Shown here one piece after another: positions 1,825 through 56,340 of a DNA stretch of 56,340 nt; position 1 is the stretch's first letter; every line of letters starts with the position of its first letter. The stretch lies in the IMG/VR virus record IMGVR_UViG_3300020471_001437; one strand, given 5' to 3'. The position numbers and the translations under genes are program-made. The notes beneath the pieces are model-generated. The model was given only the letters and a program-made list of their open reading frames with translations. It had not been told where the DNA came from and made no database searches. The DNA is from an uncultured virus (IMG/VR IMGVR_UViG_3300020471_001437) (lineage: Duplodnaviria; Heunggongvirae; Uroviricota; Caudoviricetes).

Positions 1825-1862
1825 TTGTATCAGGACATTCGGCATCTGTATGCCCTTTGACG

Positions 1863-1907: not shown

Positions 1908-2017
1908 GGTTAACGGCTAAGTCGATGTGACCGGATAGGATTATATCCGCATACACATTCGGCTGACACAGGGCCGTACGGTCCACACCCACACAGAAAG
2001 AAAATAGGTGAATAGAA

Positions 2018-3007: not shown

Positions 3008-3044
3008 GGAAGTGAAAAGTATAGGTTAGGGTAAGGGATGACAC

Positions 3045-30176: not shown

Positions 30177-30251
30177 GGCCCCGTGGTGTAGTGGATAGCA
30201 TCATGGTTTGCGGAACCATAGACCCGAGTTCGATTCTCGGCGGGGCCGCCA
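30177..30251 (+). tRNA. trnR: tRNA-Arg (anticodon GCG), CCA encoded
   Basis: Acceptor GGCCCCG/CGGGGCC, D arm GTGT/GCAT, anticodon stem ATGGT/ACCAT with loop TTGCGGA, T arm CCGAG-TTCGATT-CTCGG, 3' GCCA. Confidence 0.95.
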
Positions 30252-40600: not shown

Positions 40601-42612
40601 TACATTTCACGGCGATAGTTCATTGAATGGTCCCAAGCAAACTTCTCTCTCTCCCGAGCAACCATTATTTCCCAATCTTTCACTACGTCCTTAGTAGGGT
40701 CTTCGCTTGGTGCTGGTTTAGGTGGAAGTGTTTCTTTGTGCTCCAACCAAGCCAAACCACCTGCTGTCCAACCCTCTTGGGTGTACTTACCATCCACCCC
40801 TTTGGCCTCCCTGCTATTCCACAAAGGCCTATCCTTCAGGTTTTGATTATATTCTTGAAGTCCAAAAGGCTCAATCCAATGAGCACCGGGGTATCTTTCG
40901 TCAACTACCTTACCGTTCTTTGCAGGCGGTTTTTCGGGGAAGCCCCTAATCACAAGTTCTCTTAGTCTTTCGATGTTTTCTTCGGTTACCTTTTCACGCA
41001 CAAACGTGTTAAGACACGATACTTTGGGCACACCTACTTCATTGATGGAAAGACCACCGTTAGCAGAAATAACTGAACGAATAACGTTGTTGACTACCTT
41101 TGAGTTTATTCTACGACGGAAGGCCGTCTTTTTGCTACCATATCCTGAAAGATTGTCAAGGATACCTGCTTTGATAGTTTTCTTCTGTGTACCTGCTCTT
41201 GTGCGTACCATCTTTGGTTCGAACATGCCAATTTTTTGATTTTGATTGAAGAAGCAGTGAGCAACCGCAGTGAATAGGTCTGCCACCCTTCGCGTCTGAA
41301 TCATACCGGGGTCTTGACCTCCTAACTTGGCTTCTCTCAAAAAGTGATTTATGCGTAACACATTGGCGTACATTACAGTAAGGTCGTTTTCCATCGGTTT
41401 ACCTGTTTGGAAATCTTCTTGCATTGGGCGAATGTTATTGGGTGCCACAGGTAGATTCTGAATCATCATGTATTCGGGTCTCATTTCAGGCGCGTCGAAT
41501 CCCATCAGTCGGGCATCGGTATCAGATATGGATTGTAGTAGCATATACACTGTCGAATAAGGGTAAAAACGGTCACCGCCAAGACCTTTTCTCGCAGGTT
41601 CAAGAAGGAACATCTTGTTATTCAAATTCCATTCGACAAGTGGTGACTTTTCTTTACAGAGGGGACAATCCATGTAAGGACCTTGGATTACACCTTGCTT
41701 TCTGATAGTTTGTTTAGTCAAGCGTCGAATACGAGCAAGTCCGTTAGGGTTTTTGTCTACTTTGTGAATTCTTTCGGCCCTCTGAAGTAAGTCATTGTAT
41801 GTGTCTTTATCCTCGATTGGTATCTTTCCACAACCATGACAAAACATATTCAATACATCTGTAAAGTCATTGGGTTGTGTGGATATTGCAAACAGTACGT
41901 GTGGAACCGGTTCTTCCAACTCAATGTGGCCAAAATGGCCCGGGCATGTTTGGTGTGGCTTACCGATAAGACTTCCTTCGCAGGTCAAACACTTCGATTG
42001 TCGCTCGCTTGCACCAAGATGACCATCTGCGGGGCCACCCGCTACGGGAGAAGGTTGCTTTGTCTGCGTCAAAATATTGTAATTCGTAACCTTTAGCACA
42101 GACATCTCTTCGATTTCTTCAGGCGACATCATTCTAATACCGACCTTTCGAATCACTTTAGAATCGGTAGTTACGGTACGTGGAGTCATAACCACCTTTG
42201 CTTGAAACTTCAGTGGGGTCTTGATGTATGCGCCTGACATACCGAGACTGTCAAACTCATCGGGATAATCTTCTGATAAATCAAACACTTCGGGAGTAGC
42301 AAAGAACCCTTTCGGTGGCTCGGGAATGACGCCTTCTTCGTCGGGGGTATCATCAAACTCACCCAATTGAACCTTGACAAGATGGTACATTACTTTCTTT
42401 GAGCGAAGCCCTTCAGCATCAGGGTGAGTATAGAAATACGCGAGAGCAGATTGCTCCCGTTGAGGGACAAACCTTCGAGAAGAACCTTTGATGTCGAGGT
42501 CAACTACCTGTATTGTTGTACCGTCTTCTGTCTCTATTTCGTAGATTTCATCTTTGGTAAAGTACCAATAGAACTGTGTGACGGCAATCGGTCCTTGCTC
42601 TTCTTCAAGCAT
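37672..42612 (-). CDS. rpo1: DNA-directed RNA polymerase largest subunit (Rpo1; A' and A'' in one chain)
   Basis: CPGHFGHIEL, RSVIS, RQPSLHRQS, catalytic NADYDGD (40399-40419), bridge helix DSGYL, trigger loop EPATQASLRTFHSGG. Confidence 0.95.
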   Translation of the reverse strand: MLEEEQGPIAVTQFYWYFTKDEIYEIETEDGTTIQVVDLDIKGSSRRFVPQREQSALAYFYTHPDAEGLRSKKVMYHLVKVQLGEFDDTPDEEGVIPEPPKGFFATPEVFDLSEDYPDEFDSLGMSGAYIKTPLKFQAKVVMTPRTVTTDSKVIRKVGIRMMSPEEIEEMSVLKVTNYNILTQTKQPSPVAGGPADGHLGASERQSKCLTCEGSLIGKPHQTCPGHFGHIELEEPVPHVLFAISTQPNDFTDVLNMFCHGCGKIPIEDKDTYNDLLQRAERIHKVDKNPNGLARIRRLTKQTIRKQGVIQGPYMDCPLCKEKSPLVEWNLNNKMFLLEPARKGLGGDRFYPYSTVYMLLQSISDTDARLMGFDAPEMRPEYMMIQNLPVAPNNIRPMQEDFQTGKPMENDLTVMYANVLRINHFLREAKLGGQDPGMIQTRRVADLFTAVAHCFFNQNQKIGMFEPKMVRTRAGTQKKTIKAGILDNLSGYGSKKTAFRRRINSKVVNNVIRSVISANGGLSINEVGVPKVSCLNTFVREKVTEENIERLRELVIRGFPEKPPAKNGKVVDERYPGAHWIEPFGLQEYNQNLKDRPLWNSREAKGVDGKYTQEGWTAGGLAWLEHKETLPPKPAPSEDPTKDVVKDWEIMVAREREKFAWDHSMNYRREMYAEDGLRPLRVGDIVARSVLPGDYVLFGRQPSLHRQSLNGLRVVPLDQHSISMNPAICVPFNADYDGDQMNIYVPGSIEAMNEIRDQLQLKDNVIHHRMGKLVIGTDHDQTSGVYLLTMKHKSKAGTYNPSVGLGFDEDGVPYFSRRMMNSIFSHVFHDSGEGEYEYILDYGEPDVKGKFYSGYRCISLLLPKGINARFKSGILYNPDGTMVLNEKGKEVKDETIILDGEVITGTLDRTFMGKEKGTLAPAFYYRFGYEEGSKEMHKFLDMLCRLGFAAHHALGYSMGVADCGLSSEQYEEVRSGYEESSAICAQINRDFADRNMQKYVDDENWLPDTQQVIKQQILDNAPYQFRGQLLDQVQSPWEESVTQAVSDISGSDNAMEIAVRSGGRGKKLNIQQMGAAYGQVRISGVVPTRGLESTMNGIQRQFAHYPLRGYEIEHPIHHGYVKNSYKSGMEPHEYFTICIAGRRSDMESSSGALQDSGYLANKVRRGLESLVVDSHGRTIDLRDGTIVSFKAGGDGFRGYSSKMVHRFPDGQVLNPQGLVEGDNEDFTIELQPFFFDFKCKHDVPLGMDCDECMKGSAHIDFFVDGFNSKWDNERLTNAVVDVLAKREVMKPVVRDMVSRLDWWATQNLVEVGEAIGSTAAGCLAEPATQASLRTFHSGGKGQGASVDRLEEVVEAVNKQNAKGKQIFTSVVLQPEYWNDEDAQSIANWASPVTIQEILEVVDYDPEARLCIFNVNMRRFREKEIDAGFMMRQVRRGLKAANAPKGEMIAEIQDGDSFVIRVDGDQRDMMNMRDFISLIQVSGIQQGGPTYVTKDGDAYTLLIDSAHPKVWEALTTLLPDFVQTDTIWCDNPHTVEQFLGLEAALGCVEEQLNFQMNGDGVGIGDYDYRYVRTIVDAMGITGKVVGVGPGQGMGPKAKNTFDAMAMEDMKRHLRAGVTMGNNSNMRSVTGSTIAGRVPLVGETMRRYS

Positions 42613-43195
42613 GTCTACACCGAACCCTCATTACCAATCGGCGGGTTATCCGGTGATGCTCTGTACCTTCCTTCGCAAACCTTGGTCTTTCCACGTCCGC
42701 AAACAAAAGGCTTGAGAGGTCCGTCACCTGTCCCGCCGGGACACTATCGTGACCCCTCCTGCTGACATTGCGTCGGGTTATCGCCTTGTTTCCGCTTGCT
42801 TTGTCATAGAGGGCCTCATCTACCGCTGTCCATGTAATCAGCATAGGTACTGCCGAATAGACCTGCGGGGCCATTGTGAATCTGATGTTGTAGTTGTTGG
42901 ATTGAAGAATAGAATCAAAGTAACCATCTCCTACGTCTGATGTTACCTCTATTTCCCAAACACCGCCTTTCTCACCATTATTCTTGATTGTGAAGATGTC
43001 CGCTATTGGTATGTTGATTCCGGTTCGGATGTTTGTCTTGATATTGTTCCCGAAATTGAACAGTGCGAAAGGTTTGCCTCCGCGTTGGAGTTTTACGTTT
43101 GTACCGTATTCTCCTAATTTGGACCAAGGTGCGTCACCCGGCACTACACTCCGAGCGTCGGATAGTCTTGCCTTGTTCAGATAGTCCATCGTCAC
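42605..43195 (-). CDS. Hypothetical protein in the RNAP operon
   Basis: 196-aa ORF overlapping the Rpo1 start. Confidence 0.6.
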   Translation of the reverse strand: MTMDYLNKARLSDARSVVPGDAPWSKLGEYGTNVKLQRGGKPFALFNFGNNIKTNIRTGINIPIADIFTIKNNGEKGGVWEIEVTSDVGDGYFDSILQSNNYNIRFTMAPQVYSAVPMLITWTAVDEALYDKASGNKAITRRNVSRRGHDSVPAGQVTDLSSLLFADVERPRFAKEGTEHHRITRRLVMRVRCRHA

Positions 43196-43206
43196 ACCCC
43201 AAGCGT

Positions 43207-43650
43207 TCAGTCATCATAAGGGTAACCTGTGGAACAGGTATACGCAAGAAGGTCAGCAAAATCATTCAGCGGGTCAGACGAACGAGGAACCCACTCATAG
43301 GTTGGTTCAGCAGGAAGTGTCAAGTCTTCTACTCTCTCAACCAAGTGTACGAGGTTTTCTGAAGAAATCTCATATTCCCCATTAAGTCCTCGCGCTACCA
43401 CTTCGTTATCACTGTACACTCTTATCCCTTGTACTTCGCCCTCAATGCGCTTACTAACTTCTTCCAAGCATCTCAATACAGAATACATTTCTGCGTAGTT
43501 GCTGGTTTGTACTCCAATGTACTCTCCGCCACAGAACAGGATGTTGTTACCATCAGTTACAACAAAACCTATACCGCATTCTCCACGACCCTTTCCTTTT
43601 CTTTTGATAGTGGAACCGTCTGTCCAGCATTCAAGGATGTAATCACTCAT
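43207..43650 (-). CDS. rnhA: Ribonuclease HI
   Basis: WTDGS, GIG, TSNYAE, YSDNEVV, WVPR, NDFADLLA (all four acidic catalytic residues). Confidence 0.9.
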   Translation of the reverse strand: MSDYILECWTDGSTIKRKGKGRGECGIGFVVTDGNNILFCGGEYIGVQTSNYAEMYSVLRCLEEVSKRIEGEVQGIRVYSDNEVVARGLNGEYEISSENLVHLVERVEDLTLPAEPTYEWVPRSSDPLNDFADLLAYTCSTGYPYDD

Positions 43651-43897
43651 ATGAAATGACCCTCCACGTCCGTTCGGTACCCAAGGTAAGATTTCTTCTT
43701 TCAATCTGTACGATGTCGCCAACCTCCATTCCTTTACCTTCTGCACGCATACGTACAAGAACAGGGTCAGAGAAGAGAATGCGCGGCATCTTTTCGATGT
43801 CGTTTACGTTGTTGTTACGCATCATTAGTTTGGCTTGCGCCTTGGTTAGAACGGTGTGTTTTGGAACTTTGGGGTGCGCAAGCGGGTCTGCCATCAT
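43643..43897 (-). CDS. rpo5: RNA polymerase subunit Rpo5 (RpoH / Rpb5 C-terminal domain)
   Basis: HPKVPKHTVL...MPRILFSDP...GDIVQIER...WRVI. Confidence 0.9.
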   Translation of the reverse strand: MMADPLAHPKVPKHTVLTKAQAKLMMRNNNVNDIEKMPRILFSDPVLVRMRAEGKGMEVGDIVQIERRNLTLGTERTWRVISYE

Positions 43898-43907
43898 ACA
43901 AGGGGAG

Positions 43908-44153
43908 TTAGTGGTTGGACATATCCCTTTCCCGTTCAAAGCGTTTGACAGCAATGAACCCCATCAGCACTGAAACGAGTCCAATATAGGCGAGTAGTGG
44001 TGTCAAACCGTCTAACCACACGCCTAAAACGAACGTCAAAGACCCAAGAAAGCACAATAGCGTGTCAAACCACGCCATCAAAGAGTTTTTTTCTCTCTCA
44101 TCGGGTGGTTCGAAGGTGGGTATTTTTGAAAATGGGTCGTTTACATGTCCCAT
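43908..44153 (-). CDS. Small membrane protein (2 TM)
   Basis: Two hydrophobic helices. Confidence 0.5.
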   Translation of the reverse strand: MGHVNDPFSKIPTFEPPDEREKNSLMAWFDTLLCFLGSLTFVLGVWLDGLTPLLAYIGLVSVLMGFIAVKRFERERDMSNH

Positions 44154-44683
44154 TCGTCATCATCGTCCTCGTCGTCCTCTTCACTTTTCTTAGAAGATGG
44201 CTTTTTGGACTTCTTGATTCCCCACTCGTCTTCGTCGTCATCATCGTCGTCGTCGCCGTCATCATCGTCGTCGTCACTTGCCTCTTCTTCATCTGACTCG
44301 TCATCGAATTGGTCCCAATCTACATCATCTTCATCTTCCCAATCGTCGTCTTCGTCGTCTTCGGGCTCTTCGTCGAGGGTGTCCCAATCTGCATCTTCCC
44401 ATTCAGGGTCCCATTCGTCCTCTTCTTCTTCAGGTTCGGGTTTCTTTGAAGCGGTCTTCTTCGACTTTGTCTTCTTCGCTGAAGAACCTGCGTTGTCTGC
44501 AAGGTCTACGTTAAGCAACTTGATAGATTCGTTCTTCTTCAAAGCAAGGCTCGGTTCGAGCCAGCCCGATAATTTGTTCTTCGCTGATTCAAGGTTCTTG
44601 CCCGAAATCGAAATGCTGATGTTGAAATCAAACTCCTTCATGTACCTGCGCAGGTGAGATAAGGAGATAAGTGAATCGGTCAT
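44141..44683 (-). CDS. Highly acidic, Trp-punctuated protein
   Basis: Long D/E tracts with periodic W and two K/S-rich patches. Confidence 0.65.
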   Translation of the reverse strand: MTDSLISLSHLRRYMKEFDFNISISISGKNLESAKNKLSGWLEPSLALKKNESIKLLNVDLADNAGSSAKKTKSKKTASKKPEPEEEEDEWDPEWEDADWDTLDEEPEDDEDDDWEDEDDVDWDQFDDESDEEEASDDDDDDGDDDDDDDEDEWGIKKSKKPSSKKSEEDDEDDDDEWDM

Positions 44684-44894
44684 TGGCGATAGATTGTTTC
44701 ACAAAACCGTTATAGGCATCTACTCGATGGACCTGTCATGGCGAAGGGCAACTCAACAGTCGAAGACGCCTTTACCACCATCAGAATACGCCGGTTTGAC
44801 CATGACCGACTGATGGCTCTTCGTCGTGCGAATGAGACGCATTGGGAAGTAATCCGTCGTCTCCTTGATTCGCACGATTTGAGAGAGGATTAAC

Positions 44895-45293
44895 ATGTCC
44901 AAGGGCGAAAGAAAAGTACAGCAAATCAAGAAAGCGTTCGTTGCATTGCACGAACGGGACAGAATCAACGAAGTTTCTATCAGAGAAGTCAAGAATTGGC
45001 TTGATGATAACACGCGTGACGGCATGACTCTCATGCGACTCGCTAACTTCCTATCAAAGAGACCATCATTCAAGATGGTGCGTAGAGAGCGTAAAGTTGG
45101 TACCAATCAAACCGAATCGTTTTGGACAATGCCTGATGTAATGGTGAGCGAAGAATACACCAAGGCTGAAAACACTGCAAGAAGGATTGGTTGGGTAACT
45201 GACTACGGTAGATGCTTTGATTGCATGGAAATGAGCAGTCTGAATGCCGATGGCGTATGTTCTAAGTGCGAGTGGAAGTATCCGACGGCGTGA
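44895..45293 (+). CDS. Winged-helix DNA-binding protein with C-terminal Zn finger
   Basis: SIREVKNWL...TLMRLANFLSKRPSF...W plus CFDC...CSKC. Confidence 0.6.
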   Translation: MSKGERKVQQIKKAFVALHERDRINEVSIREVKNWLDDNTRDGMTLMRLANFLSKRPSFKMVRRERKVGTNQTESFWTMPDVMVSEEYTKAENTARRIGWVTDYGRCFDCMEMSSLNADGVCSKCEWKYPTA

Positions 45294-45300
45294 AATGTAC

Positions 45301-45345
45301 ACCACATATGTGGTTCACACACGCATGTATAATGAAGGAGGAGGA
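45301..45345 (+). promoter_or_regulatory. Promoter/operator copy 1
   Basis: 14-bp palindrome ACCACATATGTGGT; TATAAT starts 27 nt after the palindrome start; then a purine run. Confidence 0.75.
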
Positions 45346-45810
45346 CGCTCCAACGTCGCTGAGAAGCAAAGACGTGCAGGGACAAGGACCCTGCCCTTCA
45401 CAGACCAATGCGGGTTCGTTAGAGCCCGCAGTCCTCTTGAGGCTTAACTTTCGAGTTTATTCAATGCCTCTTGAGGAATCGCAAAAGTCCTACCCCTCCA
45501 AGGGTAGGCGAAAAAAAAATCTCCTAAACGTAATGGAGATTACTGTAACGAGGTGGTAGAATGGGCGACAGCCCGGGGGCCGGCCGGTGGAAACACCGCA
45601 CGGAACGCCACAATTAGCAATACATACTTGAAAAACAGGACTGCGACTACGAACCACATTTAATTGTGGCATCCCGTAAGGGATGGAGAAGAATGTGCTT
45701 GTGTTCACGCAAAGGTGTCGTCCCGGGTCATGCCGGCGATACTGACACAAGAGGAAACTCGCGGGAGTTACGGTAATCGTTGAGATTACGCGTGGATTAG
45801 CATCCACATA
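45340..45810 (+). ncRNA. Putative structured non-coding RNA
   Basis: No convincing ORF; consecutive hairpins (GCAGGG..CCCTGC, GCGGGTTC..GAGCCCGC, CCTACCC..GGGTAGG, AATCTCC..GGAGATT) directly after promoter 1. Confidence 0.45.
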
Positions 45811-46269
45811 GGCCCAATGGGTCACAGATAGGGTAAAATCCTCTTAATAGGAGGTGTAGACGTCCCTTCGGCTCGAAACACTCATGCAATTGGGTTGCCG
45901 TAAACTATGACCGTCGCCATGACTTTCAAAGGATTGTCGGAGCGGCGGAGGGGAAGATTGCACTTGCCCCACAGATATAGCGCAAACAGACTATTTACTC
46001 CGGAGGTGATTCTGTCACCACCCCAGCGAATAGGCGCGTTGACTATCCCATATGAGGTTCCGATACTTGTATGGAGCGGACGTAAGTCCAACCAAAATCG
46101 GATAGAACCACAGCAGAAACAGAGGACCTCTTCTGCACTAATTCGGTGAGAATATGGTGGTTTGATAACGTCCTCGGTGTACACAAATCTACGATTTTTG
46201 CCGGTGAAACGGTAGAATGAATAGAGGCGTGTCAGGTAGGGTTTGGGACCATTGTAATGATGGTATGAA

Positions 46270-46305
46270 GAAATTACTGATATACGGCCGTATATTGGTG
46301 ATTTC
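46270..46305 (+). terminator. Long hairpin ending the first unit
   Basis: GAAATTACTGATATAC-GGCC-GTATATTGGTGATTTC; all three non-Watson-Crick pairs are G-U on the + strand. Confidence 0.5.
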
Positions 46306-46327
46306 CTCGTAGTACAGAAAAAAGTGC

Positions 46328-46375
46328 ACCACATATGTGGTTCACACACACATGTATAATGAAGAAGGAGAGGGG
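46328..46375 (+). promoter_or_regulatory. Promoter/operator copy 2
   Basis: ACCACATATGTGGT at 46328, TATAAT at 46355. Confidence 0.75.
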
Positions 46376-46660
46376 AATAACCCAAAGAGGCCCCCCTAAG
46401 AGACACAAAACTTCTTCACAGATTGGCACCCATGATTGGGTTTTGTTGATAGTCAAGAGGGATTACGATTGAACACTTGTGTTCATGAATAGTCCAGCCG
46501 AGATGATTGAGCACTTGTGTTCTTTCATCAAAGCAACTCTTGAAAGGAGAAATTCATGATTGGGTGTCATCACAAATCAAACACAGATTTGATAGATAAC
46601 AACTAAGCCGATGGTCACTTCATACATGTATGACGTGACTGTCGGCTTTACTTTTTTTGT
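46370..46660 (+). ncRNA. Putative ~290-nt structured RNA with terminator-like end
   Basis: GGCACCCA/TGGGTGTC and TCAAGAG/CTCTTGA enclose two copies of GATTGA(A/G)CACTTGTGTTC; long G-U-containing hairpin at 46605-46648 followed by a T run. Confidence 0.55.
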
Positions 46661-46823
46661 GAAGACCATGAGTAGCGATTACTCCGTTTCGCGGATGGAA
46701 CCTATGGGCGAGAGATGGATTTCTCTACGACCCCATAGCAGGTGACGAGACGTAGGCAGAATGGAACTGCCATGGAGACATGCCTGCCCTAAACCAAATT
46801 ACCTTCACATAGTAATACAATAG

Positions 46824-46894
46824 ACTGCATCAAAGGAGGTGATATATTTGATTAGCAGTGTTTGGGGGTGTCTCAATAGCGGCGAGGCACCCCC
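46824..46894 (+). ncRNA. SD-in-loop hairpin + GC hairpin, copy 1
   Basis: ACTGCATCAAA/TTTGATTAGCAGT stem with loop GGAGGTGATATA; then GGGGGTGTCTC/GAGGCACCCCC. Confidence 0.6.
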
Positions 46895-47018
46895 TTAGAG
46901 CCTAAGACCACACATCGTAAAATATTCAGTCCCGCCAACCTTGAATATTGGCCTGCGCGCAGGTTGATGGTAGGAACAGAAAAAAGCCGGATAGAAAAGG
47001 ACCGGTTGTAGAGTTAAC

Positions 47019-47150
47019 ATGTCGAAGAAGTCAAATTCTAAGGCGGTCAAGAAAGTGGAAGTCCGAAAGGAAAGGAACAAGGCTCCGAACCTTGTTCCTT
47101 ACTGCGGTCAGTGCTTCCACGGGATTGACCACAAATGCAACTTGCAGTAG
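47019..47150 (+). CDS. Small basic Zn-binding protein (43 aa)
   Basis: MSKKSNSK...YCGQCFHGIDHKC. Confidence 0.45.
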   Translation: MSKKSNSKAVKKVEVRKERNKAPNLVPYCGQCFHGIDHKCNLQ

Positions 47151-47205
47151 CGGTTCGGAACCGAATGCTGTTTGTTACGGGACGTAATGCGTCCCACAGA
47201 GAAAC

Positions 47206-47457
47206 ATGGGTTCGCGTAAAGCAAATCCGTACGACCCTCTTTGGAAGGCCCTCCGGGCTGAAGGATTGGAGCACGTTGGCCGCAAGGCTATCGCGCTTCT
47301 TCCTCCGGCTCCGGTCGTTGCTTCTAAGGCTAAGAAAGGTGTGGAAGAGCGTGTCTCTTTCAACATCTGCCATATGTCTTGGAACTTCGATTCTTGGGCT
47401 TTGCTTGAGGAGTTCATGCCCACCCTTGTGGTGTGCGTGGCTTCCATGTTCGATTGA
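47206..47457 (+). CDS. Hypothetical protein
   Basis: Preceded by the hairpin-ACAG element at 47179. Confidence 0.5.
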   Translation: MGSRKANPYDPLWKALRAEGLEHVGRKAIALLPPAPVVASKAKKGVEERVSFNICHMSWNFDSWALLEEFMPTLVVCVASMFD

Positions 47458-47740
47458 ACATGAGTAGGGTTGTACAGAACCGCCTGTACAACAGTGTCTT
47501 CGGACACTGCGGGAGCGGTACTTCGGCTGAAATGGTAGTCAGTACGAAGGGGCACGGCGACTTCCTGCCCGCAAGTTATTTAGTCTACGAAAACGTATAC
47601 TTGCGAAAACATACCCGATGAATAAAAACAGTGCGCGAAAAACAGTACAAGTTCATCGTATCGCCGTAAGGTGGAACTGCCGTAGTGTAACAACCGGTAG
47701 ATGCGAGAAAGAGCAGGGTTAGTGCCTGCGATTACAAGAA

Positions 47741-47828
47741 ACTGTAAGCAAACATTACTACAAGGAGGTGACAATTTGTTTAGCAGTGTTCGGGGAGCGT
47801 CTCATGCCCGTGCGGCGAGGCGTTCCCC
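47741..47828 (+). ncRNA. SD-in-loop hairpin + GC hairpin, copy 2
   Basis: ACTGTAAGCAAA/TTTGTTTAGCAGT stem with AAGGAGGTGA in the loop; then GGGGAGCGTCTC/GAGGCGTTCCCC (compensatory versus copy 1). Confidence 0.6.
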
Positions 47829-47904
47829 TCAATTCGAGGCGATTAAGAATCGCCATCACGCATTCCCGTCGGGAATGCTTTTCACGGTGCTGGATAGCAC
47901 CAAC

Positions 47905-47935
47905 GGGCCACCTTCGGGTGGCCCAACTTTATTTT
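47905..47935 (+). terminator. UUCG hairpin followed by a T-rich tract
   Basis: GGGCCACC-TTCG-GGTGGCCC-AACTTTATTTT. Confidence 0.45.
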
Positions 47936-48165
47936 ACAGAGGGCCGTAAAGGCCACAGATGTCAGGAATACCTGAATATTTTCTCGCACGAAAGCGTGAT
48001 TGGCGAACCAAGGACCTCAAGCCCACTGACAATTGGGACGAGGCTACACTCCTTTGGGACGCTGGCGAATACGTGCGAATCGTGAAGCCCGGTGATACAT
48101 ATGACCGGCTTCAACAGTTCATCAACTCTCAATCTTGATGAAACAACGGCCTCATGGGCCATAGA

Positions 48166-48465
48166 ATGCAATTCAAGGATTGTATCAAGCGAGTTGTTCG
48201 TACACACGACATCGGACAGTTGCGAAAGGAGTACATCGTACTCCACGACGGTAACCGCTTTGCGTTGAAGCATGTTGACGAGTTCGTTCGTCAGTTCATT
48301 CTTTCCAACGCGAAGAAGGTATACACTGCTCACTTCGAGCACGTAGCACGCAAGAACGCGAACACTCTGCCTATGAAGCAGATGTGTTCCGCTTGCAATG
48401 CGGCTCGAAACGGGCAGTATGCCGTCGCTCGCGACACGCTGAAACGCTACGGCATTTCAGCATGA
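48166..48465 (+). CDS. Hypothetical protein
   Basis: ATG directly after hairpin-ATAGA. Confidence 0.55.
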   Translation: MQFKDCIKRVVRTHDIGQLRKEYIVLHDGNRFALKHVDEFVRQFILSNAKKVYTAHFEHVARKNANTLPMKQMCSACNAARNGQYAVARDTLKRYGISA

Positions 48466-48571
48466 TGTTGGGTGGAGACAATGTGTCACCGAGTGCTTGG
48501 GTGACAGCCACAGTTGGAGTTGAAAGACGAAGATTGTGATAAACGAGCACATTCGGACCTATGGTCCACAG

Positions 48572-48787
48572 ATGTTGTCTGAAGATGATGTTACACAGCA
48601 TGTATGCTTTCATCGCCCAATCAAGGGCGAGGCATACACAATATGCGGACACACATACACGGGAAGGCATGTACCATTTGCTAACCGAGTAAAGTGCCCG
48701 ACATGTGGCAAGACGGGAACCATTCAATTGGTTAAACCCAACTATGTGATGGAGAAGTATACGAAATTGTATTCATCTCTGTCTTGA
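48572..48787 (+). CDS. Small Zn-ribbon protein
   Basis: ICGH...CPTCG; ATG after hairpin-ACAG. Confidence 0.55.
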   Translation: MLSEDDVTQHVCFHRPIKGEAYTICGHTYTGRHVPFANRVKCPTCGKTGTIQLVKPNYVMEKYTKLYSSLS

Positions 48788-48960
48788 CCACAACCGGCCT
48801 CATGGGCCACAGAATGTGAGTTTACCCCAACACCAAGCGTTCGCCGAACAAGACGAGGAACGGAAAGAACAAAGTTGCGATAGGTAGTGACAACATAAAG
48901 GAGGTAGTCATTGCGACGCCTACTTTTTGCTGTCAATTCGGGGCGCAGACACGTTCACAG

Positions 48961-49155
48961 ATGAATTGCCCACATTGCAATGAAAACATCACGGTCCGGC
49001 TCGAAAAGCCGGGTAGGAAGGCGGCTCGACGTCGACTTCTTCGTGCTCGAAGAGCACAACGGCTATCAGAACTCCGTTCTGAAAAGCCAACTCAACCATC
49101 GGACACACCAAAGAACCCGTATATCACTCCGGTTCGCCAATCCGAGGAAGAGTAA
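48961..49155 (+). CDS. Small basic protein with CPHC
   Basis: ACAG-ATG start; Arg-rich. Confidence 0.5.
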   Translation: MNCPHCNENITVRLEKPGRKAARRRLLRARRAQRLSELRSEKPTQPSDTPKNPYITPVRQSEEE

Positions 49156-49174
49156 TCGGCCCAATGGGCCACAG

Positions 49175-49315
49175 ATGCCTCGCCGCACAAGAAAAATGCC
49201 GTATGGAGAGGGATGTCCACGGCAATGGAGACGCAAACTGCGTCGGCAAGGAAGAAGGGAAGCAAAGGATGAAATGATGGAATACACCAAGTCATCCAAA
49301 AAATCCCGGGGCTAA
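49175..49315 (+). CDS. Small Arg/Lys-rich protein
   Basis: Bounded by two hairpin-ACAG elements. Confidence 0.5.
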   Translation: MPRRTRKMPYGEGCPRQWRRKLRRQGRREAKDEMMEYTKSSKKSRG

Positions 49316-49326
49316 TGGCCCCACAG

Positions 49327-49770
49327 ATGTCTGAAGAAGTTAATTCTGAAATATCGTTAGCCGTCAATGACGGCGTCACCGTTCTTTCGAACGGTGTCAA
49401 GGTGGTGAATTCTTCACCACACCCATTTGTCTTTGACGATGGAACAGTAGTGCCACCGTGTGGCATTACGCTGAACGCTCAATTTATTGAGCGTGAACAA
49501 GGGTCTTTGCCTCTTGCCTCTCACACAGGTAAGCGTGTGACTTTCGTGGTCACGGACAAAGTCCCAACGGAGGAAGGTACGGCCTTCCTCGACGCTGTCC
49601 CTGACGGCGTCCTTGTACTCGGGTCGCTCATTGCGGCTGAAGCGTACTGCTTCCCGGTTGTTCAACCGGTCCCCACGCCGGAGACGGCTGGGCGAGGTAC
49701 TGCCCCCGCTGATAGACGGGTCCGGTCTGACCGGTTCACTCGATTTGGCCACGTGTCATTGTTTGAGTGA
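49327..49770 (+). CDS. Hypothetical viral protein
   Basis: VVNSSPHPFVFDDGTVVPP...VLGSLIAA; ATG after hairpin-ACAG. Confidence 0.6.
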   Translation: MSEEVNSEISLAVNDGVTVLSNGVKVVNSSPHPFVFDDGTVVPPCGITLNAQFIEREQGSLPLASHTGKRVTFVVTDKVPTEEGTAFLDAVPDGVLVLGSLIAAEAYCFPVVQPVPTPETAGRGTAPADRRVRSDRFTRFGHVSLFE

Positions 49771-49791
49771 GGAGACCTAATGGGTCACAGA

Positions 49792-50025
49792 ATGGCAAAA
49801 AAATACATTGCTGTACGAAACGGCCACGTTCAAAACGTGGTTTTTGTATGCACGGGTATGAACCGATGTTATTGGTACGACCACGTGTGGCCTCTCATTG
49901 AGGGAACACAATATCAGGATTTCAAGGGATTCGATTCTCTACCTGATGCTAAAGCATACGTCGGTCCCGACGTGGCTATCGCTTGGCGTCCTGACGCCGA
50001 GGATATGCTTATCGGGATGGAATAA
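49792..50025 (+). CDS. Stand-alone RNase H1 N-terminal hybrid-binding (viroplasmin-like) domain
   Basis: KKYIAVRNG...W...I.G..Y..FKGFDSLPDAKAY matches the YAVxxG..W....YKxFxxxxEAxxY pattern. Confidence 0.65.
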   Translation: MAKKYIAVRNGHVQNVVFVCTGMNRCYWYDHVWPLIEGTQYQDFKGFDSLPDAKAYVGPDVAIAWRPDAEDMLIGME

Positions 50026-50048
50026 ACAACGACCCAATGGGTCACAGA

Positions 50049-50285
50049 ATGAGCGACAAAACGTATACCGCTGACGACATTGGAAAAGAAGTGACCCTAA
50101 ATATTGATGGTGTTGCTCTCCAAGATGTAGTAGTCGAAGTTGCACTACCCGGAAGGGGAAGCATAATCGGCCCAACTTTCGTCTGCGCTCATATTTTTGC
50201 TCGTTTGACTATGATGGCCTCAATGATGCAGGCCTCCGAGCACGCCAACAAAGAGCGTGACGATTGGTCGGACGAGATGGCTTGA
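50049..50285 (+). CDS. Hypothetical protein
   Basis: Bounded by hairpin-ACAG elements. Confidence 0.55.
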   Translation: MSDKTYTADDIGKEVTLNIDGVALQDVVVEVALPGRGSIIGPTFVCAHIFARLTMMASMMQASEHANKERDDWSDEMA

Positions 50286-50661
50286 AAGCCGACCGGTCCT
50301 ATGGGCCACAGGTTCGTTGGGGTCGCGCTTAACCAGCGCGAGGTAAGTGAGTTACTGTAAGCATTGGTGATGATGTCGTAACCAACCCCAAGGTCCCACA
50401 GATGTACAAGAAGAAAGCGCAGGCCTTTGTGGTCTGCATGACTCTGATGATGTTTGGGTTTTTTACAACCCTCATCATGCAATTAGGCTAATGGCCACAG
50501 ATGGAACCACAATGGTTTTTGGACTTGCTCAACAGACGAGATGTTGAGAAGATGGTGGACTACGACCCTTTCATGGATGCAGTAGTTCACACATTCACCC
50601 ACGAACTGTGGGAATTTACCATCATACAACAATTATGATAACGGGTCAATGACCCATAGAA

Positions 50662-51231
50662 ATGTTCGATAACAAAAAAGAATATGAGTTCTACGACCCT
50701 GAATTTGGGCCGACAGAACGAACTGATTGGAAGGAGAACTACAAACAGTTCTTGAGAGACGAGGATGCGCAATACGTATACCCGACTTTCGAGAAGCCGA
50801 AGACGGTCACAATCATGAGAGGACTCCCCGGCTCGGGGAAATCTACTCACGTGCGTGACAACTTTCCGGACGCTGTTGTAGCATCTGCTGACGATTTCTT
50901 CATGGATGAAAACGGCGAGTACGTTTTCGTTCCATGGAAGATTGGTGAAGCCCACCAATCCTGTTGGACCGTTTTCATTAACGCTGTTTTCAACAGGGAA
51001 CGTAACATTGTGGTGGACAACACCAACATGTGCGGATGGGAATACTCCAACTACGTACTACTTGCACGCAAGATGGGATACGAAATTCAAATTCACACGA
51101 TGAAGGCTGGCTTAACAGACGACACCAAACTGACGACGCTTGCAAAGCGAAACTCACACGGTGTTGACTTGAAGACAATCAAATCAATGAAAGAGCGTTT
51201 CGAACCTGACTTTGGTGAGAAATACGTATAA
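50662..51231 (+). CDS. P-loop kinase (AAA_33 / N4BP2-like polynucleotide kinase)
   Basis: IMRGLPGSGKST, SADDFF, IVVDNTN, RNSHGV. Confidence 0.85.
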   Translation: MFDNKKEYEFYDPEFGPTERTDWKENYKQFLRDEDAQYVYPTFEKPKTVTIMRGLPGSGKSTHVRDNFPDAVVASADDFFMDENGEYVFVPWKIGEAHQSCWTVFINAVFNRERNIVVDNTNMCGWEYSNYVLLARKMGYEIQIHTMKAGLTDDTKLTTLAKRNSHGVDLKTIKSMKERFEPDFGEKYV

Positions 51232-51610
51232 CGGCCTTATGGGCCATAGTCTGGTAGTTACGAGGTGGCAATGCCCGCCTTAATCGTCCGAGGGTCGCCC
51301 CCTTGGGGCCTTGTAGCAACCTCGTTTGGGTGGAGGTGTCCCACCGCTTGAGTTTTCGTGCCCCCAAAGCGCGAGGATTAGGTGGGTGCTGGACACCCAA
51401 ACGTAGAGAATCCGTTATAGACGGTACGAAGCATGGCTGTTGCATGGAAGACTATCACGTACGATGTCAAGTTGCCGCAATGCTGTATGTTGGAGGACAA
51501 GTAAAGTCCTACGAAGAAGCCCTCAAAATTGCTGATAGCATGTTGAAGGCTTCACAAGCATACCAAGGTTAAGTCGACATATGTCGGCAGTTTGAGATGT
51601 GTATACTGAC

Positions 51611-51657
51611 ACCACATATGTGGTTCAGTCACACTTGTATAATGAGAGAAGGAGGGA
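51611..51657 (+). promoter_or_regulatory. Promoter/operator copy 3
   Basis: ACCACATATGTGGT at 51611, TATAAT at 51638; a related palindrome CGACATATGTCG at 51575-51586. Confidence 0.75.
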
Positions 51658-51746
51658 CCTTCTCTCATAACCGAGTGTCGCGGAATCACCAAGTTCCGAA
51701 GTCACTCGGTTATCTGTATTTTACAGAGGGCTGTAAAGCCCATAGA

Positions 51747-52004
51747 ATGCAAACACATTTTGCAAATGGATGGAGAGTTTCCATCATCTGCTCCGAATTT
51801 TCTTACGGTGGCAAAGATGGTCTCTTCGAGTTGGCCGTTCTTGATAAGAACGGTAGACTCCACTATGACAACCCCGTTTCTAACGGGGATGTCCGTGGAT
51901 GGTTAACGGAAGCCGAGGCGCAAGCCTTGGCCGACGAAGTTGCCTCTTGGCAACCTGACCAACACCCTCCTGCGCCCAAGGAATCTTGGGAAGAAGAGGA
52001 ATAA
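51747..52004 (+). CDS. Conserved small viral protein
   Basis: FANGWRVSII...SYGGKDGLFELAVL...DVRGWLT resembles a widespread uncharacterised phage family. Confidence 0.6.
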   Translation: MQTHFANGWRVSIICSEFSYGGKDGLFELAVLDKNGRLHYDNPVSNGDVRGWLTEAEAQALADEVASWQPDQHPPAPKESWEEEE

Positions 52005-52019
52005 GACCTAATGGGTCAC

Positions 52020-52690
52020 AGATTACGCGTATTGTAAATCTATGAGTGCTCCCCTCGCGGGAGTTGGTTCCGATAACTTCGGGGCCCCACGGGAAACCGT
52101 GCCTAATTGTAGTCTTACGCGGGGCACCAACACTCCGGCTTGGCCGGTTGGAGTTGGGAAGTGTCTTACCGGGGAGTAGCATGAAGACTCCCAAGGTAAG
52201 GCTTGGGTATCACCCGTTCAAAAGGGTGGTAATGCGCTGTCGAGCGCGAGATGAGAAAAGACAGGAAATTAGTTCGCCGGTAACCAACCCGGGGCTTATG
52301 GAACGTTCGCCTTCGGGCGAAGATGGTGTGCCGGGAAGAGGAAACCCGGTTGCTCTCGGAATCGTACATGCCGTACGTGGGTCTTGGCACCCACAGGATG
52401 TATGACGAAAGGGGACCCTTCGGGGATACGGAAACAGGTCATGGGCCGGGACTAACACTCTCGGGTTCCCGCTGTTTCTAACGTGCTTGCGGAGTTGATA
52501 GGCCGCAGGACACCGACTATGACGCGAAAGCCAAAAAGTCGGCACCTGACACCACCGTGAAAACGGAGCAAGTAGGCTTAACACCCCGAAAGCATTCTCA
52601 GAATCGTGAACCAGCCGGTTTAAGACCGGACGGGCCGAAAGGTATCGACAGGACTGAGGGACCGCTGAATAAGCGGGTTGGCGTTTAGTC
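52020..52690 (+). ncRNA. Putative large (~670 nt) structured RNA
   Basis: Dense hairpins with stable tetraloops (CACGG-GAAA-CCGTG at 52088, TTCGCC-TTCG-GGCGAA at 52306, CTTACC..GGTAAG, CCGACT..AGTCGG); only implausible ORFs. Confidence 0.6.
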
Positions 52691-53077
52691 ATTTACCGAA
52701 ACAAGGAATGGATACGTATCGAGCGATAATGAATTATCACCATGATATGCGTTCTGCGGTTAGTTCCGTTCCTGTGGATAACTCAAATGCTCATGGGGGA
52801 TGTAGCCGTAGAACGTTAAATCCGCCGCCAATTGAGCCTCCCCATGCCTCCCCGGAGGACACATAGAACATGATAACAGGTATCAGTGTTAGTACCGTAA
52901 TGCGGTATGCTGGTTCTACAAATAGAACCAACCAATATGCCGGAGACGGCACAGCAAGTCTGTCTGATAGCGTAAGGGCTCTCATTACAGACATGAAGAA
53001 AAGAGGCTATACGCCGGAAAATTCCAACTTATTGAAGAGAGTTTAGTTGGTTACGGTCGAGAGGCCATAGAGGTACC

Positions 53078-54490
53078 ATGTCAAACAAAAAGACTAAGGA
53101 AAACCGACAGGCTGGTAATGCCAGCCAAAAAGGCAAGGAGGTAAGTCACCTAAAGCAAGGTCGTAAGACCAAGCGGGTGAAGGGCCAAGATGCCAAAATG
53201 GGAAGTCGCGGTGGTTATGACCACGCACGACCCATCAACAACAGGAAAAGCAAGAAGCACGTTACAAGCCGAAAGGTTACTGCTTCACGCGCCGCTGGCA
53301 ACGGAAAGCCACGTGTAGAGAAAGCCCCTCCGGGCAAACTCCCACGCGGCAAGAACGGTGACGGAAAGCGGTGGGTTCCTTGGGTAGAGATTCCAAACTC
53401 TGCACAAGTACACCACTACTACTACGTCATCCGTGAGATGCTTGAAGGCGCGGTTCCTGCTGATGTGAAGGATAGGGCACACCGCCTTGGAGTTCAGCAG
53501 TTAGACCTACACGGTCCAACAGTAGGGAGTGTTGAATCGCTCTTAACGAACTCACCACGACTTCGCCGTGATTGGCGTTCAGTCGTAGGAATCCTTCGTA
53601 TGTTGCATGAAGACAACTACATTCCGGCATCCTTCGTTGAGAAGGTGCTGAAGAACCACCCCTTAACGGGTGCGAAGAGTGTACAAGTTGTGCAAGACAC
53701 GTCAGTGGTTGAGGACTTTGTCCAAGACCGTGTTCGTGCAAGCAACAAAAAGTGGGTGTCTGAAGCGAAGGCTTCGTACGCTCGCGCAATCACAAAACTG
53801 CGTGAAAACTTCAATGAGTCATTCACGGAAGAGCAACAACAGTTGTTCCCCGGACTTACAGAAGAACAATACATGCAGGCGGCCGATAAGGCTTGGGCAG
53901 GATGGCCGGAAAATCGTAAGATGCCGGTTATCGACCACGATGGACAGACATTCGTTTGTAAAAACGAACAGGCCTTCGTTACAGCCCACATGACGCGACG
54001 CGCCTACAAGGCGGCTCGCCGTCTCCCGACCCTATTCAGGATGTCGGGCGGCATATCCTACGAAGTGTTGGAGGATAACGAATTCAAACGCAAGTCTGAC
54101 TTCGTAAACATCGAATACGCAACCAAACCCGATGGTGGAGTTTGGTTCGCAGTCGTTAACGGCGGAAACAAGAAGAAGAGTGCAAACTCTCCGTTCCGCT
54201 CACAATACTGCCAAATGTCATCTCACAAAGATGTCAGGCTGTACATTGACGACATTGACACGCCGAAGTCCGCTACAACGGACCACATTCAGCGTGCACC
54301 AAGAGATGTTGCTCCTGAAATCACTGACGACATGTCTGTACCCGAGATGCTTCGGGTAATGGAAGACAGAGGATGGAGTGCTGGACGAGTCAAGGCTCGC
54401 CCGGAACGAAAGCGTCAACCGAAGAGGACACGGAAGATTCAACCCTCCCGTGGCAAACCTCGAGTCGGCCGCAAATCCCGAGAGGGATGA
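53078..54490 (+). CDS. Hypothetical protein with very basic termini (possible RNA-binding)
   Basis: 470 aa; K/R-rich N- and C-terminal tails; lies between two structured RNAs. Confidence 0.65.
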   Translation: MSNKKTKENRQAGNASQKGKEVSHLKQGRKTKRVKGQDAKMGSRGGYDHARPINNRKSKKHVTSRKVTASRAAGNGKPRVEKAPPGKLPRGKNGDGKRWVPWVEIPNSAQVHHYYYVIREMLEGAVPADVKDRAHRLGVQQLDLHGPTVGSVESLLTNSPRLRRDWRSVVGILRMLHEDNYIPASFVEKVLKNHPLTGAKSVQVVQDTSVVEDFVQDRVRASNKKWVSEAKASYARAITKLRENFNESFTEEQQQLFPGLTEEQYMQAADKAWAGWPENRKMPVIDHDGQTFVCKNEQAFVTAHMTRRAYKAARRLPTLFRMSGGISYEVLEDNEFKRKSDFVNIEYATKPDGGVWFAVVNGGNKKKSANSPFRSQYCQMSSHKDVRLYIDDIDTPKSATTDHIQRAPRDVAPEITDDMSVPEMLRVMEDRGWSAGRVKARPERKRQPKRTRKIQPSRGKPRVGRKSREG

Positions 54491-54616
54491 GTGGGGACGG
54501 GCTAATGGCCCACCCACATAGTAAATTGATTGAAGGCGAGGCCTGCGGAAACGCGGCTTCGTCTTCATTTTTTTTTTGGTGGCGACTTTAAGTACTGTCA
54601 CCTTAGAGGTAACGAC

Positions 54617-55120
54617 ATGAGTCATTACACTGAAGTGAAGTCCGCTTTCAGCATCGAACATAGAGATGAACTGATTGCGACTTGTAAGGAACTGTGGCCC
54701 GAAGCCACTGTCCTCGTCGCCGACGAAGGAAAGCACGTAAAATGCCGTGGTTGGCCGGGTCAAACCCCGCGCAACTGCGACATTGTTGTGAGATTCCGTC
54801 GACCGACAGAAGAAAAACAAGGTAACTACGACATTGGCTTCGTTAAGAGAGCCGATGGTTCTTATGCCATGATTTCGGATTGGTACGCTTGCACGTACCC
54901 CGAAGCAACCAACGACAAGGGACGTACAGGTTCCGCGGCGGTTGAAGGCATGTTGAAGCCAATCTACACCCGACGTCTGATGAAGAAGACGCTGAAAAAG
55001 AAGAAGTCCCTGAAAGGATTCAAGGACATTTCAAAGAAGGGTGACGTGATTACTCGAAAGAACAAAGACGGGAAGGAAATACGCTACGCGCGTTTGAAAT
55101 TCCGCAGGGCGGGGCTGTGA
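54617..55120 (+). CDS. DUF1257 (Ycf35-like) protein
   Basis: MSHYTEVK...DIVV...YDIGF...DGSYAMISDW. Confidence 0.7.
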   Translation: MSHYTEVKSAFSIEHRDELIATCKELWPEATVLVADEGKHVKCRGWPGQTPRNCDIVVRFRRPTEEKQGNYDIGFVKRADGSYAMISDWYACTYPEATNDKGRTGSAAVEGMLKPIYTRRLMKKTLKKKKSLKGFKDISKKGDVITRKNKDGKEIRYARLKFRRAGL

Positions 55121-55124
55121 TAGA

Positions 55125-55343
55125 ATGGCTCTGAAGAAACCTGAAATTGTCGAAGTACTTGTGCCGATTGACGACCCGAATGAGGCAATCGTTATTGACG
55201 CGCTGAATTTTGAGGGAGACGCTTGTTCTCTCGCCACCGCAGAGTTCGAGAAGGCTCTTGGTAAGGTTGAGAAGAAGAAGTTGAAACCTGAATTCAGAAA
55301 GAAAAAGGCAAAGGCTCAACGCAACATTAAGTTGGGCAATTGA
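55125..55343 (+). CDS. DUF2997-like protein
   Basis: IDALNFEGDACSLATAEFEKALG...KPEF; usual partner of DUF1257. Confidence 0.7.
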   Translation: MALKKPEIVEVLVPIDDPNEAIVIDALNFEGDACSLATAEFEKALGKVEKKKLKPEFRKKKAKAQRNIKLGN

Positions 55344-55537
55344 CCGGGGAATAGTCCCCATAGAATGAAATTTAACTGACTCGCGCGGCTTGCGGCCGCA
55401 GAGAAACGAGTAGACCCCCATACGTGGGACTATCGAAAGATAGTATGTGTCTACAAACGAAGCATGAGGTTACGAGAGAGCCGGAAGGGCGAATCTGATA
55501 GTTTCGAGTAATGCAACACACCTAATGGGTGTATAGA

Positions 55538-56104
55538 ACAAGTACAGACGGTCTTTGACAAGACACACCACATAGTAGAGGACCGCAACCGTCTGTGCGA
55601 GCAATTCCGAAAGGATTAGTGTGGTGTGTCGTTGAATGGAGCAGGTGAATCCGAAAGGTGAAACCCGTTCGCTAAACACGTGGTGGTGCATTCAGGGGTC
55701 CGGCATAACAGGGAGTAATCCGCACGTTGATGGTGTCGCAACCGGAGTGCTGTTGGCGTCTCGCAGACGCTACGCAAACTGTGAAAACCCACGGGCTCAC
55801 GTCGAGAAGCGGTTAGACCGCAGGCGGGAACCCTCGAACCGGAAACAGGAAAGACGCCTTCACTAAGTCGTGGAGGACCTGATTCCCAAGATTACAACGT
55901 GACCGTCAGGTCACTTAGGGTGTGGCTTGAGGCATTGCGAGAGTGCAATGTCACTCGATGACCACAATTAAACAACGGAGTCCCCTTACGTGGGGACGCG
56001 CTGAACCTTTGCAGGTTCACGCGCCAAACGAGTCGTACGTGTACGACGAAGGCTCCGCCGACGCAACAGACGCAACGTAGTGCCCATTAAGGGGACTCCG
56101 TTGT
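55538..56104 (+). ncRNA. Putative large (~570 nt) structured RNA with pseudoknot
   Basis: Crossing 11-bp helices 55542-55552/55588-55598 and 55562-55572/55620-55630; 17-bp helix 55972-55988/56088-56104; many hairpins. Confidence 0.7.
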
Positions 56105-56117
56105 ATGTAGTGTTGAT

Positions 56118-56219
56118 GTGTATACGGTGCACCCAGCAGGATTCCTACAATGGATGAATGACAAAGCACCAACGATTACTACTAACGTAAACTACCCTCA
56201 TTGGGGATATGAGAACAAG
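56118..56219 (+). other. Mosaic of short fragments homologous to this virus's structural genes
   Basis: 56190-56219 matches 557-586 at 26/30 nt (NYPHWGYENK); 56118-56171 encodes VYTVHPAGFLQWMNDKAP versus VYLRHPAGVPKWVLDEAP in gene 2018-3007. Confidence 0.75.
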
Positions 56220-56340
56220 TGCAATGGAAATTGCAATACCAAAAGTTCTCCAAAAGTTTGCGAAGAAACTTACCCATTATTCTCCGGACGCCGGGACCCA
56301 AGGCCTTTGGCCATCCCAAGGCGATTATAGACAGTGGATG

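Follow-up and report, generated by a model that had tools for sequence, protein, structure and literature searches.

Strong Shine-Dalgarno sites without a conserved product in the early region of an RNA-polymerase-encoding marine virus: candidate dead-end initiation sites

The window analysed here, a stretch of 56,340 nucleotides from an uncultured virus of the Caudoviricetes (IMG/VR record IMGVR_UViG_3300020471_001437), carries in its early region three hairpins that combine a strong Shine-Dalgarno (SD) sequence with a TTG at initiation spacing. They are referred to below as copy 1 (46824-46859), copy 2 (47741-47787) and copy 3 (48884-48914), all on the + strand; their sequences and coordinates had been given correctly in a first-pass annotation of this DNA, which regarded them as possible ribosome decoys. 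Comparison with related viruses suggests that what is kept at these places is very probably a site that works in ribosome binding and for which the encoded product is of no importance. We propose tentatively, and with somewhat more doubt than assurance, that selection maintains them in the early RNAs of the virus as dead-end sites of translation initiation, which would capture ribosomes and, at the end of the whole chain, damp SD-led host translation in trans; the ribosome binding and the host shut-off are both what we infer from sequence.

The strength of the SD sequences was judged against an assumed 11-nt 16S rRNA tail. Both strands of the window together contain three anti-SD complements of at least 9 nt (at 46002, in copy 1 and in copy 2), all within one 3-kb stretch that lies after a conserved non-coding RNA; 0.04 would be expected there, and 0/1000 shuffles matched the observation, the stretch having been chosen after the hits were seen. 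Copy 1 has the best complement of the window, the 10-nt AGGAGGTGAT at 46834-46843 within the loop GGAGGUGAUAUA, followed by a TTG at 46848-46850, and copy 2 has the 9-nt AGGAGGTGA at 47763-47771, followed by a TTG at 47776-47778. Copy 3 (AGGAGGT at 48899-48905, TTG at 48911-48913) is one of five 8-nt matches in the window, so that the description of these sites as among the best anti-SD complements holds, with copies 1 and 2 as the top two. Duplex energies of the sites range from -15.6 to -18.4 kcal/mol, as compared with -13.2 for the best listed gene of the window. In a complete relative, G001 (140,336 bp, with direct terminal repeats and the same gene order as the window), two complements of at least 9 nt were found in 140,000 of the 140,336 bases, one leading a gene and the other occupying the slot of copy 1.

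The SD had been placed in the loop, and the TTG in the 3' arm of the stem, of all three hairpins. For copy 1 both placements stand in full, its SD being unpaired at 0.96 in short contexts as well as in its predicted RNA unit. This value falls to 0.22 in one of five contexts, where an upstream anti-SD-like AATTACCTTC at 46797 is included; according to the folds, this internal stretch (46797-46806, +, immediately upstream of 46812, where the unit is predicted to begin) can mask copy 1 and may act on it as a switch. In copy 2 the TTG does lie in the 3' arm, but the SD is half paired (0.39 unpaired). Copy 3 folds as annotated only when taken as an isolated 31-mer (z -3.85), while in five of five wider contexts and in the closed 148-nt module that contains it (48812-48959, +) its SD is mostly paired (~0.3 unpaired) and its TTG is open. 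That module is replaced in L027, a locus ~96% identical to the window. On both grounds copy 3 is weak, and by the comparison with L027 it is dispensable.

By sequence comparison, copies 1 and 2 are real and paralogous beyond chance, with a local alignment score of 55 against a maximum of 26 in 200 shuffles. Each is followed by a GC hairpin (46864-46894 and 47792-47828, both +) that begins at +17 from the TTG, a position that, in copy 1, may correspond to the edge of an initiating ribosome. Together with these hairpins the fold z-scores are -3.9 for copy 1 and -4.9 for copy 2, while the SD hairpins alone reach about -1.9. The GC hairpins had also been credited with compensatory changes. They are indeed paralogous and, compared by eye, show a single pair altered on both sides (U-A to C-G), a G-C that has become G-U and one extra pair, but RNAalifold finds 1 of 17 pairs changed on both sides, on an imperfect alignment; with so few changes between the two copies, the covariation is thin.

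A metagenome scan anchored in the neighbouring RNA yielded 17 loci, 11 of which have a site of at least 9 nt located 1.3-2.5 kb past the search anchor; of the six loci without one, five break off before 724 nt and the sixth at 1811 nt. Two loci (L036, L039) are not independent because they are near-identical to the window, and the loci collapse to lineage A (the window and L027), lineage B (G001, L034 and L035/L038) and lineage C (L037), the Rpb1 proteins of lineages B and C being 62-67% identical to that of the window. The copy 1 hairpin is identical in L027. Lineage B carries its SD site where the window has copy 1, and lineage C where the window has copy 2; the lineage-C site has the same 83-aa gene on its 5' side and is followed by the same terminal hairpins. 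In the window, the predicted unit to which these belong spans 47199-47957 (+) and comprises this conserved gene (47206-47457), a structured 3' region with copy 2 and a terminator-like hairpin (47905-47935). Copy 1 would correspondingly lie at the 5' end of a predicted RNA unit (46812-47198, +) delimited by two CAYA^G motifs, followed by a 43-aa gene (47019-47150) with a homologue in lineage C; the boundaries of this unit are predicted ones, and there is no local stem at 46812. Between lineages the flanks of the SD sites can be aligned at the SD core only. A covariance model of copies 1 and 2 found no significant homologue in lineages B and C; the lineage-C site, in syntenic position, reached 13 bits (E 1.3) and was one of three weak matches. 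A model of the 161-nt lineage-B unit matched in lineage C only its own downstream hairpin. The per-lineage P for sites in B and C is a modest 0.04-0.06, so that the weight comes from recurrence.

Outside these loci little was retrieved. Scans of viral contigs with Rpb1 and RNA patterns matched G001 alone; a scan for the pattern of copies 1 and 2 gave two loci, both rejected as unrelated chance matches, and a scan for the early leader motif described below gave G001 and two unrelated loci. Rfam covariance models run over 45300-56340 at E<=5 returned one unrelated, sub-threshold match. As separate observations, L034 has at its oriented position ~2226 another hairpin, seen in no other strain, whose loop contains GAGGUG and which lacks a start codon at the usual distance, and a hairpin with a UGGAU loop at 46697-46745 of the window shows two-sided changes at 6 of 11 pairs in seven sequences, occurring once in lineage A, once inside the SD unit of lineage B and twice in lineage C.

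The start codon recurs together with the SD. In eight of eight sequences, which amount to four unrelated modules when copies 1 and 2 are counted once, TTG is the sole start codon 3-16 nt past GGAGG, a spacing range chosen post hoc, the background for such a TTG-only arrangement being 0.095 per site; the GGAGG-to-TTG spacings are 8, 7, 7, 6, 7, 7, 7 and 11. The open reading frames (ORFs) that follow have 16 codons in copy 1 (46848-46898, +, without counterpart in other lineages), 57 in copy 2 (47776-47949, +), 17 in copy 3, 3 in lineage B and 11 in lineage C. Their peptides are unrelated between lineages, and +1 and -1 indels in L027 alter the C-terminal part of the copy 2 frame. Thus the view that the sites lead no convincing gene is borne out, with no peptide conserved across three diverged lineages. 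In the four lineage-B sequences a 25-nt run from SD to stop, encoding M-N-L and a stop, is invariant, tied for the longest invariant run in an alignment in which 72% of columns are invariant, while the 5' arm of the stem varies. Since SD and TTG are kept while peptides and 5' arm vary, it is the initiation site, and not the peptide or an open loop, that is maintained; the open loop stressed at first is not the conserved feature. A weak hairpin encloses SD and TTG. Copies 1 and 2 have a further hairpin downstream, from +17 onward, and two of three lineage-B variants have one from +19; in lineage C and copy 3 it is weak or different.

Codon usage was examined for signs of tRNA sequestration. Tandem AGC AGU codons occur in copies 1 and 2 only, these codons being present at 7.7 and 11.8 per 1000 in eight viral core genes; AGC and AGU are read by one tRNA-Ser through standard wobble. 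The share of AGY among serine codons is 16/92 in early genes and 168/645 in core genes (P 0.09, a comparison that covers viral genes and not host usage). In a codon-avoidance test, TTA was low in the early genes of all lineages and not in those of lineage B alone.

The early genes next to the sites had been described as SD-less. A repeated motif, a stem followed by ACA/AUA^G, precedes early genes and RNAs from 45403 to 55575 (+) of the window, with 37 CAYAG positions in the 11,741 bases of 44600-56340, and in G001 it stands at ~46500-92000 before nearly all early genes and RNAs; its stems covary and have G-U pairs on the sense strand. Only 1 of 14 motif-led early genes of the window and 3 of 59 in G001 have an SD that reaches -7 kcal/mol, in agreement with the earlier description. 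Outside the early region 27 of the 37 listed window ORFs of at least 150 codons reach this value, a figure that takes the best of several starts and a 12-nt instead of an 11-nt tail, and that includes some spurious ORFs. The RNA contigs come from four runs, at most three samples and two studies, and the motif G is the left edge in 5 of 25 distinct left edges among the 32 contig pieces listed. Because the early genes are SD-less and follow a motif at which RNA contigs begin, their mRNAs look near-leaderless, the motif marking predicted 5' ends. It would be either a promoter or a cut site, and either would yield a near-leaderless mRNA; more specifically, it may be a short promoter, or else a site of viral RNA processing at which the 3' end is tRNA-like.

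According to the dead-end-site proposal, the early RNA would be cut or started at the stem+AYA^G motif, giving near-leaderless early mRNAs and releasing the modules. The long SD would then capture a small ribosomal subunit, the hairpin melting in the process, and the weak start with its downstream stem or early stop would leave the ribosome stalled or cycling. Tying up ribosomes, initiator tRNA or a peptidyl-tRNA in this way could damp the SD-led translation of the host during early infection and spare the leaderless mRNAs of the virus. As the core genes of the virus are themselves led by an SD, it would be harmed by a decoy that persisted, and the RNAs would have to decay or be masked before these genes are expressed. 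The full scenario of an RNA-based translational takeover, in which leaderless early mRNAs and SD-trap RNAs together shut SD-led host translation and spare viral early genes, we regard as possible and as somewhat more doubtful still than the dead-end-site proposal taken as a whole.

As to transcription, copy 2 lies inside RNA contigs 47332-47841 (X2) and 47567-47841 (X1), which stem from one sample, and partly in 47619-47765 (X4). For copies 1 and 2, then, neither conserved TTG peptides nor a general lack of conservation and transcription of loops and stems, the two results named beforehand as fatal to the decoy idea, was observed. A number of points nonetheless weigh against a ribosome trap. 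The depth of the copy 2 contigs, 44-98 as compared with 1600-3200 for the neighbouring non-coding RNA at 52050-52870, is low for a stoichiometric sponge, although contig depth cannot rank RNAs, and copies 1 and 3 are not covered by RNA contigs, which is not proof of their absence. The SD is half paired in copy 2 and in lineages B and C (0.4-0.7 unpaired, in units or short contexts). One gene of G001 has an equally strong SD (-16.9), and the RNA polymerase, PolB and structural-region genes of the virus are themselves SD-led. The evidence is carried by three lineages in all, a single study supplied all five motif edges, and the start of an RNA cannot be read from contigs. Finally, Thermoplasma makes wide use of leaderless mRNA according to a review (PMC7531240), so that the selectivity against the host may be small.

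Among other explanations, the one to be taken most seriously, though we find it rather unlikely, is that of a cis-acting stabiliser, in which a ribosome parked on the strong SD would shield a processed RNA from 5'-to-3' decay, as in elements of the STAB-SD or phage SP82 type, and host translation would not be its target. Strong SDs are described as stabilising transcripts, a phage mRNA among them, even when translation is not productive (PMC7509114); the site of copy 1 is 24 nt and that of lineage B 28-29 nt away from a predicted 5' end, and such a role would neither conflict with SD-led core genes nor require high abundance. However, copy 2 (with its SD at ~+565) and the lineage-C site stand near the 3' end of their unit, the TTG that a stabiliser does not need is kept everywhere, the unit to be protected in lineage B is non-coding, and the far more abundant RNAs at 45403 and 52050 have no site of at least 8 nt. 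A regulatory upstream ORF, acting through ribosome loading, translational coupling or attenuation on the next viral gene, is improbable. It would account for the copy 2 ORF, which extends across the terminator-like hairpin and leaves 9 nt between its end and the next ATG, its stop being restored by the two indels of L027, and for the alternative fold offered by the anti-SD stretch upstream of copy 1; and the stop of the copy 3 ORF overlaps the ATG of gene 48961. That overlap, though, follows automatically from the ACAGAUG motif, and in both L027 and G001 the gene downstream of copy 3 is preceded by a motif leader of the ordinary kind. The ORF lengths (3, 11, 16, 17 and 57 codons) and the positions relative to terminators and genes vary among lineages, and for the same reasons the leader-peptide attenuator offered originally as an alternative fits poorly: a conserved leader peptide combined with an alternative terminator fold in a fixed geometry was not found.

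That the ORFs are early genes with a fast turnover that encode genuine small proteins, the peptides having separate functions, appears very unlikely. Proper SD-start spacings (6-11 nt), the free swapping of small genes in early regions, and codons 3-5 common to copies 1 and 2, with one synonymous change in L027, would agree with it; on the other hand, M-N-L cannot be a protein, the peptides do not resemble each other between lineages, L027 has frameshifting indels, the ORFs cross strong hairpins, and true early genes avoid an SD. We give equally little credence to SD-like words unrelated to ribosomes, whether a protein-binding loop, a structural purine run or chance. The frequent half pairing of the SD, the modest per-lineage P and the GGAGG-like words that also occur in stems after a repeated promoter-like element speak for this possibility; the joint recurrence in three lineages with a TTG at spacing each time, and the invariance in lineage B that spans exactly the stretch from SD to stop, speak against it.

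The window encodes a divergent, fused Rpb1-type RNA polymerase subunit (37672-42612), Rpb5 (the two genes lying at 37672-43954), PolB, a thermosome and many proteins without assignment; the same RNA polymerase subunits mark a group of marine viruses of 140 kb that was represented by one IMG/VR contig in the scans made. The Rpb1 of G001 is 63% identical to that of the window. The closest named cellular thermosomes, at ~44% identity, are those of marine group II Euryarchaeota (MGII/Thalassarchaeaceae), and we infer that the hosts are probably Poseidoniales archaea; this assignment rests on the thermosome neighbours because two scans of genome contigs for a host link gave no match. No major capsid protein was recognised among 43 proteins compared with PHROGs, which did yield an FtsK/terminase-like ATPase match, and, with regard to the capsid type, a single-sequence fold had a pLDDT of 38.8 and an atlas search gave no match. 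The sole tRNA is a tRNA-Arg (30177-30251 in the window, 10366-10440 in locus L013), with anticodon GCG in the window and CCG at the matching place in G001. In the excerpted text of a paper on Poseidoniales viruses the terms RNA polymerase, ncRNA and leaderless mRNA do not appear (PMC11706807), and no description of this virus group was found in the incomplete literature, supplements excluded, that was searched.

Several RNAs near the SD sites were seen along the way and, together with the leader motif, may deserve more attention than the hairpins. The first, at 45403-45811 (410 nt, non-coding, z -5.7, present in RNA contigs), is 92% identical to G001 and shows two-sided changes at 23 of 118 predicted pairs in five sequences, with an optional 32-nt insert. 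A second conserved non-coding RNA of ~350 nt (45974-46320) begins at the motif G, exists in all three lineages and is likewise found in RNA contigs; it contains the further 9-nt anti-SD complement at 46002-46010 (+), which the first-pass annotation had missed and which is paired and has no ATG, GTG or TTG at initiation spacing. A discrete RNA contig of ~240 nt (46421-46658) extends from a motif G to a conserved terminator, its upstream part not being conserved between lineages. By far the deepest contigs (1600-3200 in X1/X2), found in all four runs, belong to a structured RNA of ~800 nt at 52050-52870 (z -4.0, without Rfam match), which is 82% identical to G001, where genes are mostly 65-73% identical, and is a candidate new large viral non-coding RNA. 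Structured non-coding stretches at 51249-51420 and 55360-56300 are partly conserved in G001, with 55575-55842 deep in RNA contigs. Promoter-like repeats with a CACATATGTG palindrome lie at 45293-45343, 46320-46370 and 51603-51653 and are kept in lineages B and C, each being followed by a purine-rich stem that ends at a CACA^G motif.

How archaeal viruses shut off their hosts is little understood, and the prokaryotic shut-off routes known to us act through proteins or nucleases. If the proposal is correct, the split between SD-less early and SD-led core genes, combined with SD decoy RNAs, would be an RNA route to selective translation, and the takeover would be a viral, CRISPR-independent counterpart of CreT toxins for host shut-off. 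The sites would also provide a short and cheap reagent for asking if archaeal initiation on SD-led mRNAs can be separated from that on leaderless ones. Even if they were stabilisers, an expressed, covarying cluster of non-coding RNAs would remain in an RNA-polymerase-encoding marine virus, one that was not found in the literature searched. That literature, incomplete and without supplements, contained no viral SD-decoy RNA, and the available portion of a halovirus ribosome-profiling preprint has nothing on such RNAs (10.64898/2026.09.13.751334).

In anatomy the sites match RNAs known to engage ribosomes without productive outcome, and the nearest known systems are the following. Haloarchaeal CreT, a tRNA-sequestering RNA toxin with two consecutive rare codons for one tRNA, requires strong initiation and a downstream stem-loop and tolerates UUG when an SD is present (PMC8501985), and RNAs made of an SD, a start and a stem-loop are toxic without their peptide (PMC8501985; PMC10097628). 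The sites described here similarly have a strong SD, a start codon, a mini-ORF with an irrelevant peptide and a stable stem-loop just downstream. Copies 1 and 2 also have the tandem AGC AGU codons, which are not identical, are not the rarest and are absent from lineages B and C. The sites differ from CreT in being viral and in having the start buried in a stem with the SD. No Cas family was detected in 52 window ORFs compared with Pfam (one PD-(D/E)XK nuclease lies far away), and 45000-56340 contains no array of spaced repeats resembling creA, other than the gene-leader motifs; the sites are thus not a CreTA module, no cas or creA having been seen, nor an Rfam family. Acinetobacter CreT holds SD and start in a hairpin stem, its RNA-level toxicity is thought to hit initiation, and its codons 2 and 3 must be TTT and AGC (PMC10097628). 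These are also codons 2 and 3 of copy 2, copy 1 having ATT AGC, and UUAGC at +5 to +9 is common to both copies and absent from lineages B and C and from copy 3. However, the 5-bp stem in which the start codon of that CreT pairs with nt 12-16 cannot form (copy 2 gives U-U, U-U, G-G and U-U for pairs 1-15 to 4-12), and the start codon lies in the 5' arm there and in the 3' arm here; since this 5-nt match is post hoc, is missing from B and C and lacks the CreT stem, it is a lead only.

Toxic minigenes, of which lambda bar is an example, offer a second comparison. Their short ORFs recycle ribosomes and drain tRNA by peptidyl-tRNA drop-off (PMC2490762), and the lineage-B site, an SD, a start, two codons and a stop, resembles them. 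Minigenes have at most ~8 codons; lineage B has 3, the window copies have 16, 57 and 17, and lineage C has 11. Moreover, they are known mainly from E. coli with limiting Pth, whereas here the sites are naturally conserved in structured RNAs. The small mRNA rreB of Bradyrhizobiaceae (~160 nt) has an over-strong SD and a weak start, binds 30S subunits and is poorly translated (PMC5711450); it is cellular, with a 17-nt SD and a conserved peptide, as against 9-10 nt and no conserved peptide here, and no rreB-like pairing extending beyond 10-11 nt was seen at the sites. With STAB-SD and SP82 elements the sites share a strong SD near a phage RNA 5' end without useful product (PMC7509114), but two of the four conserved sites are not near a 5' end, the start codon is kept, the host is archaeal and the ends are predicted ones. 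By analogy, the elements may work in the manner of STAB-SD elements, of minigenes or of CreT, the viral setting being new.

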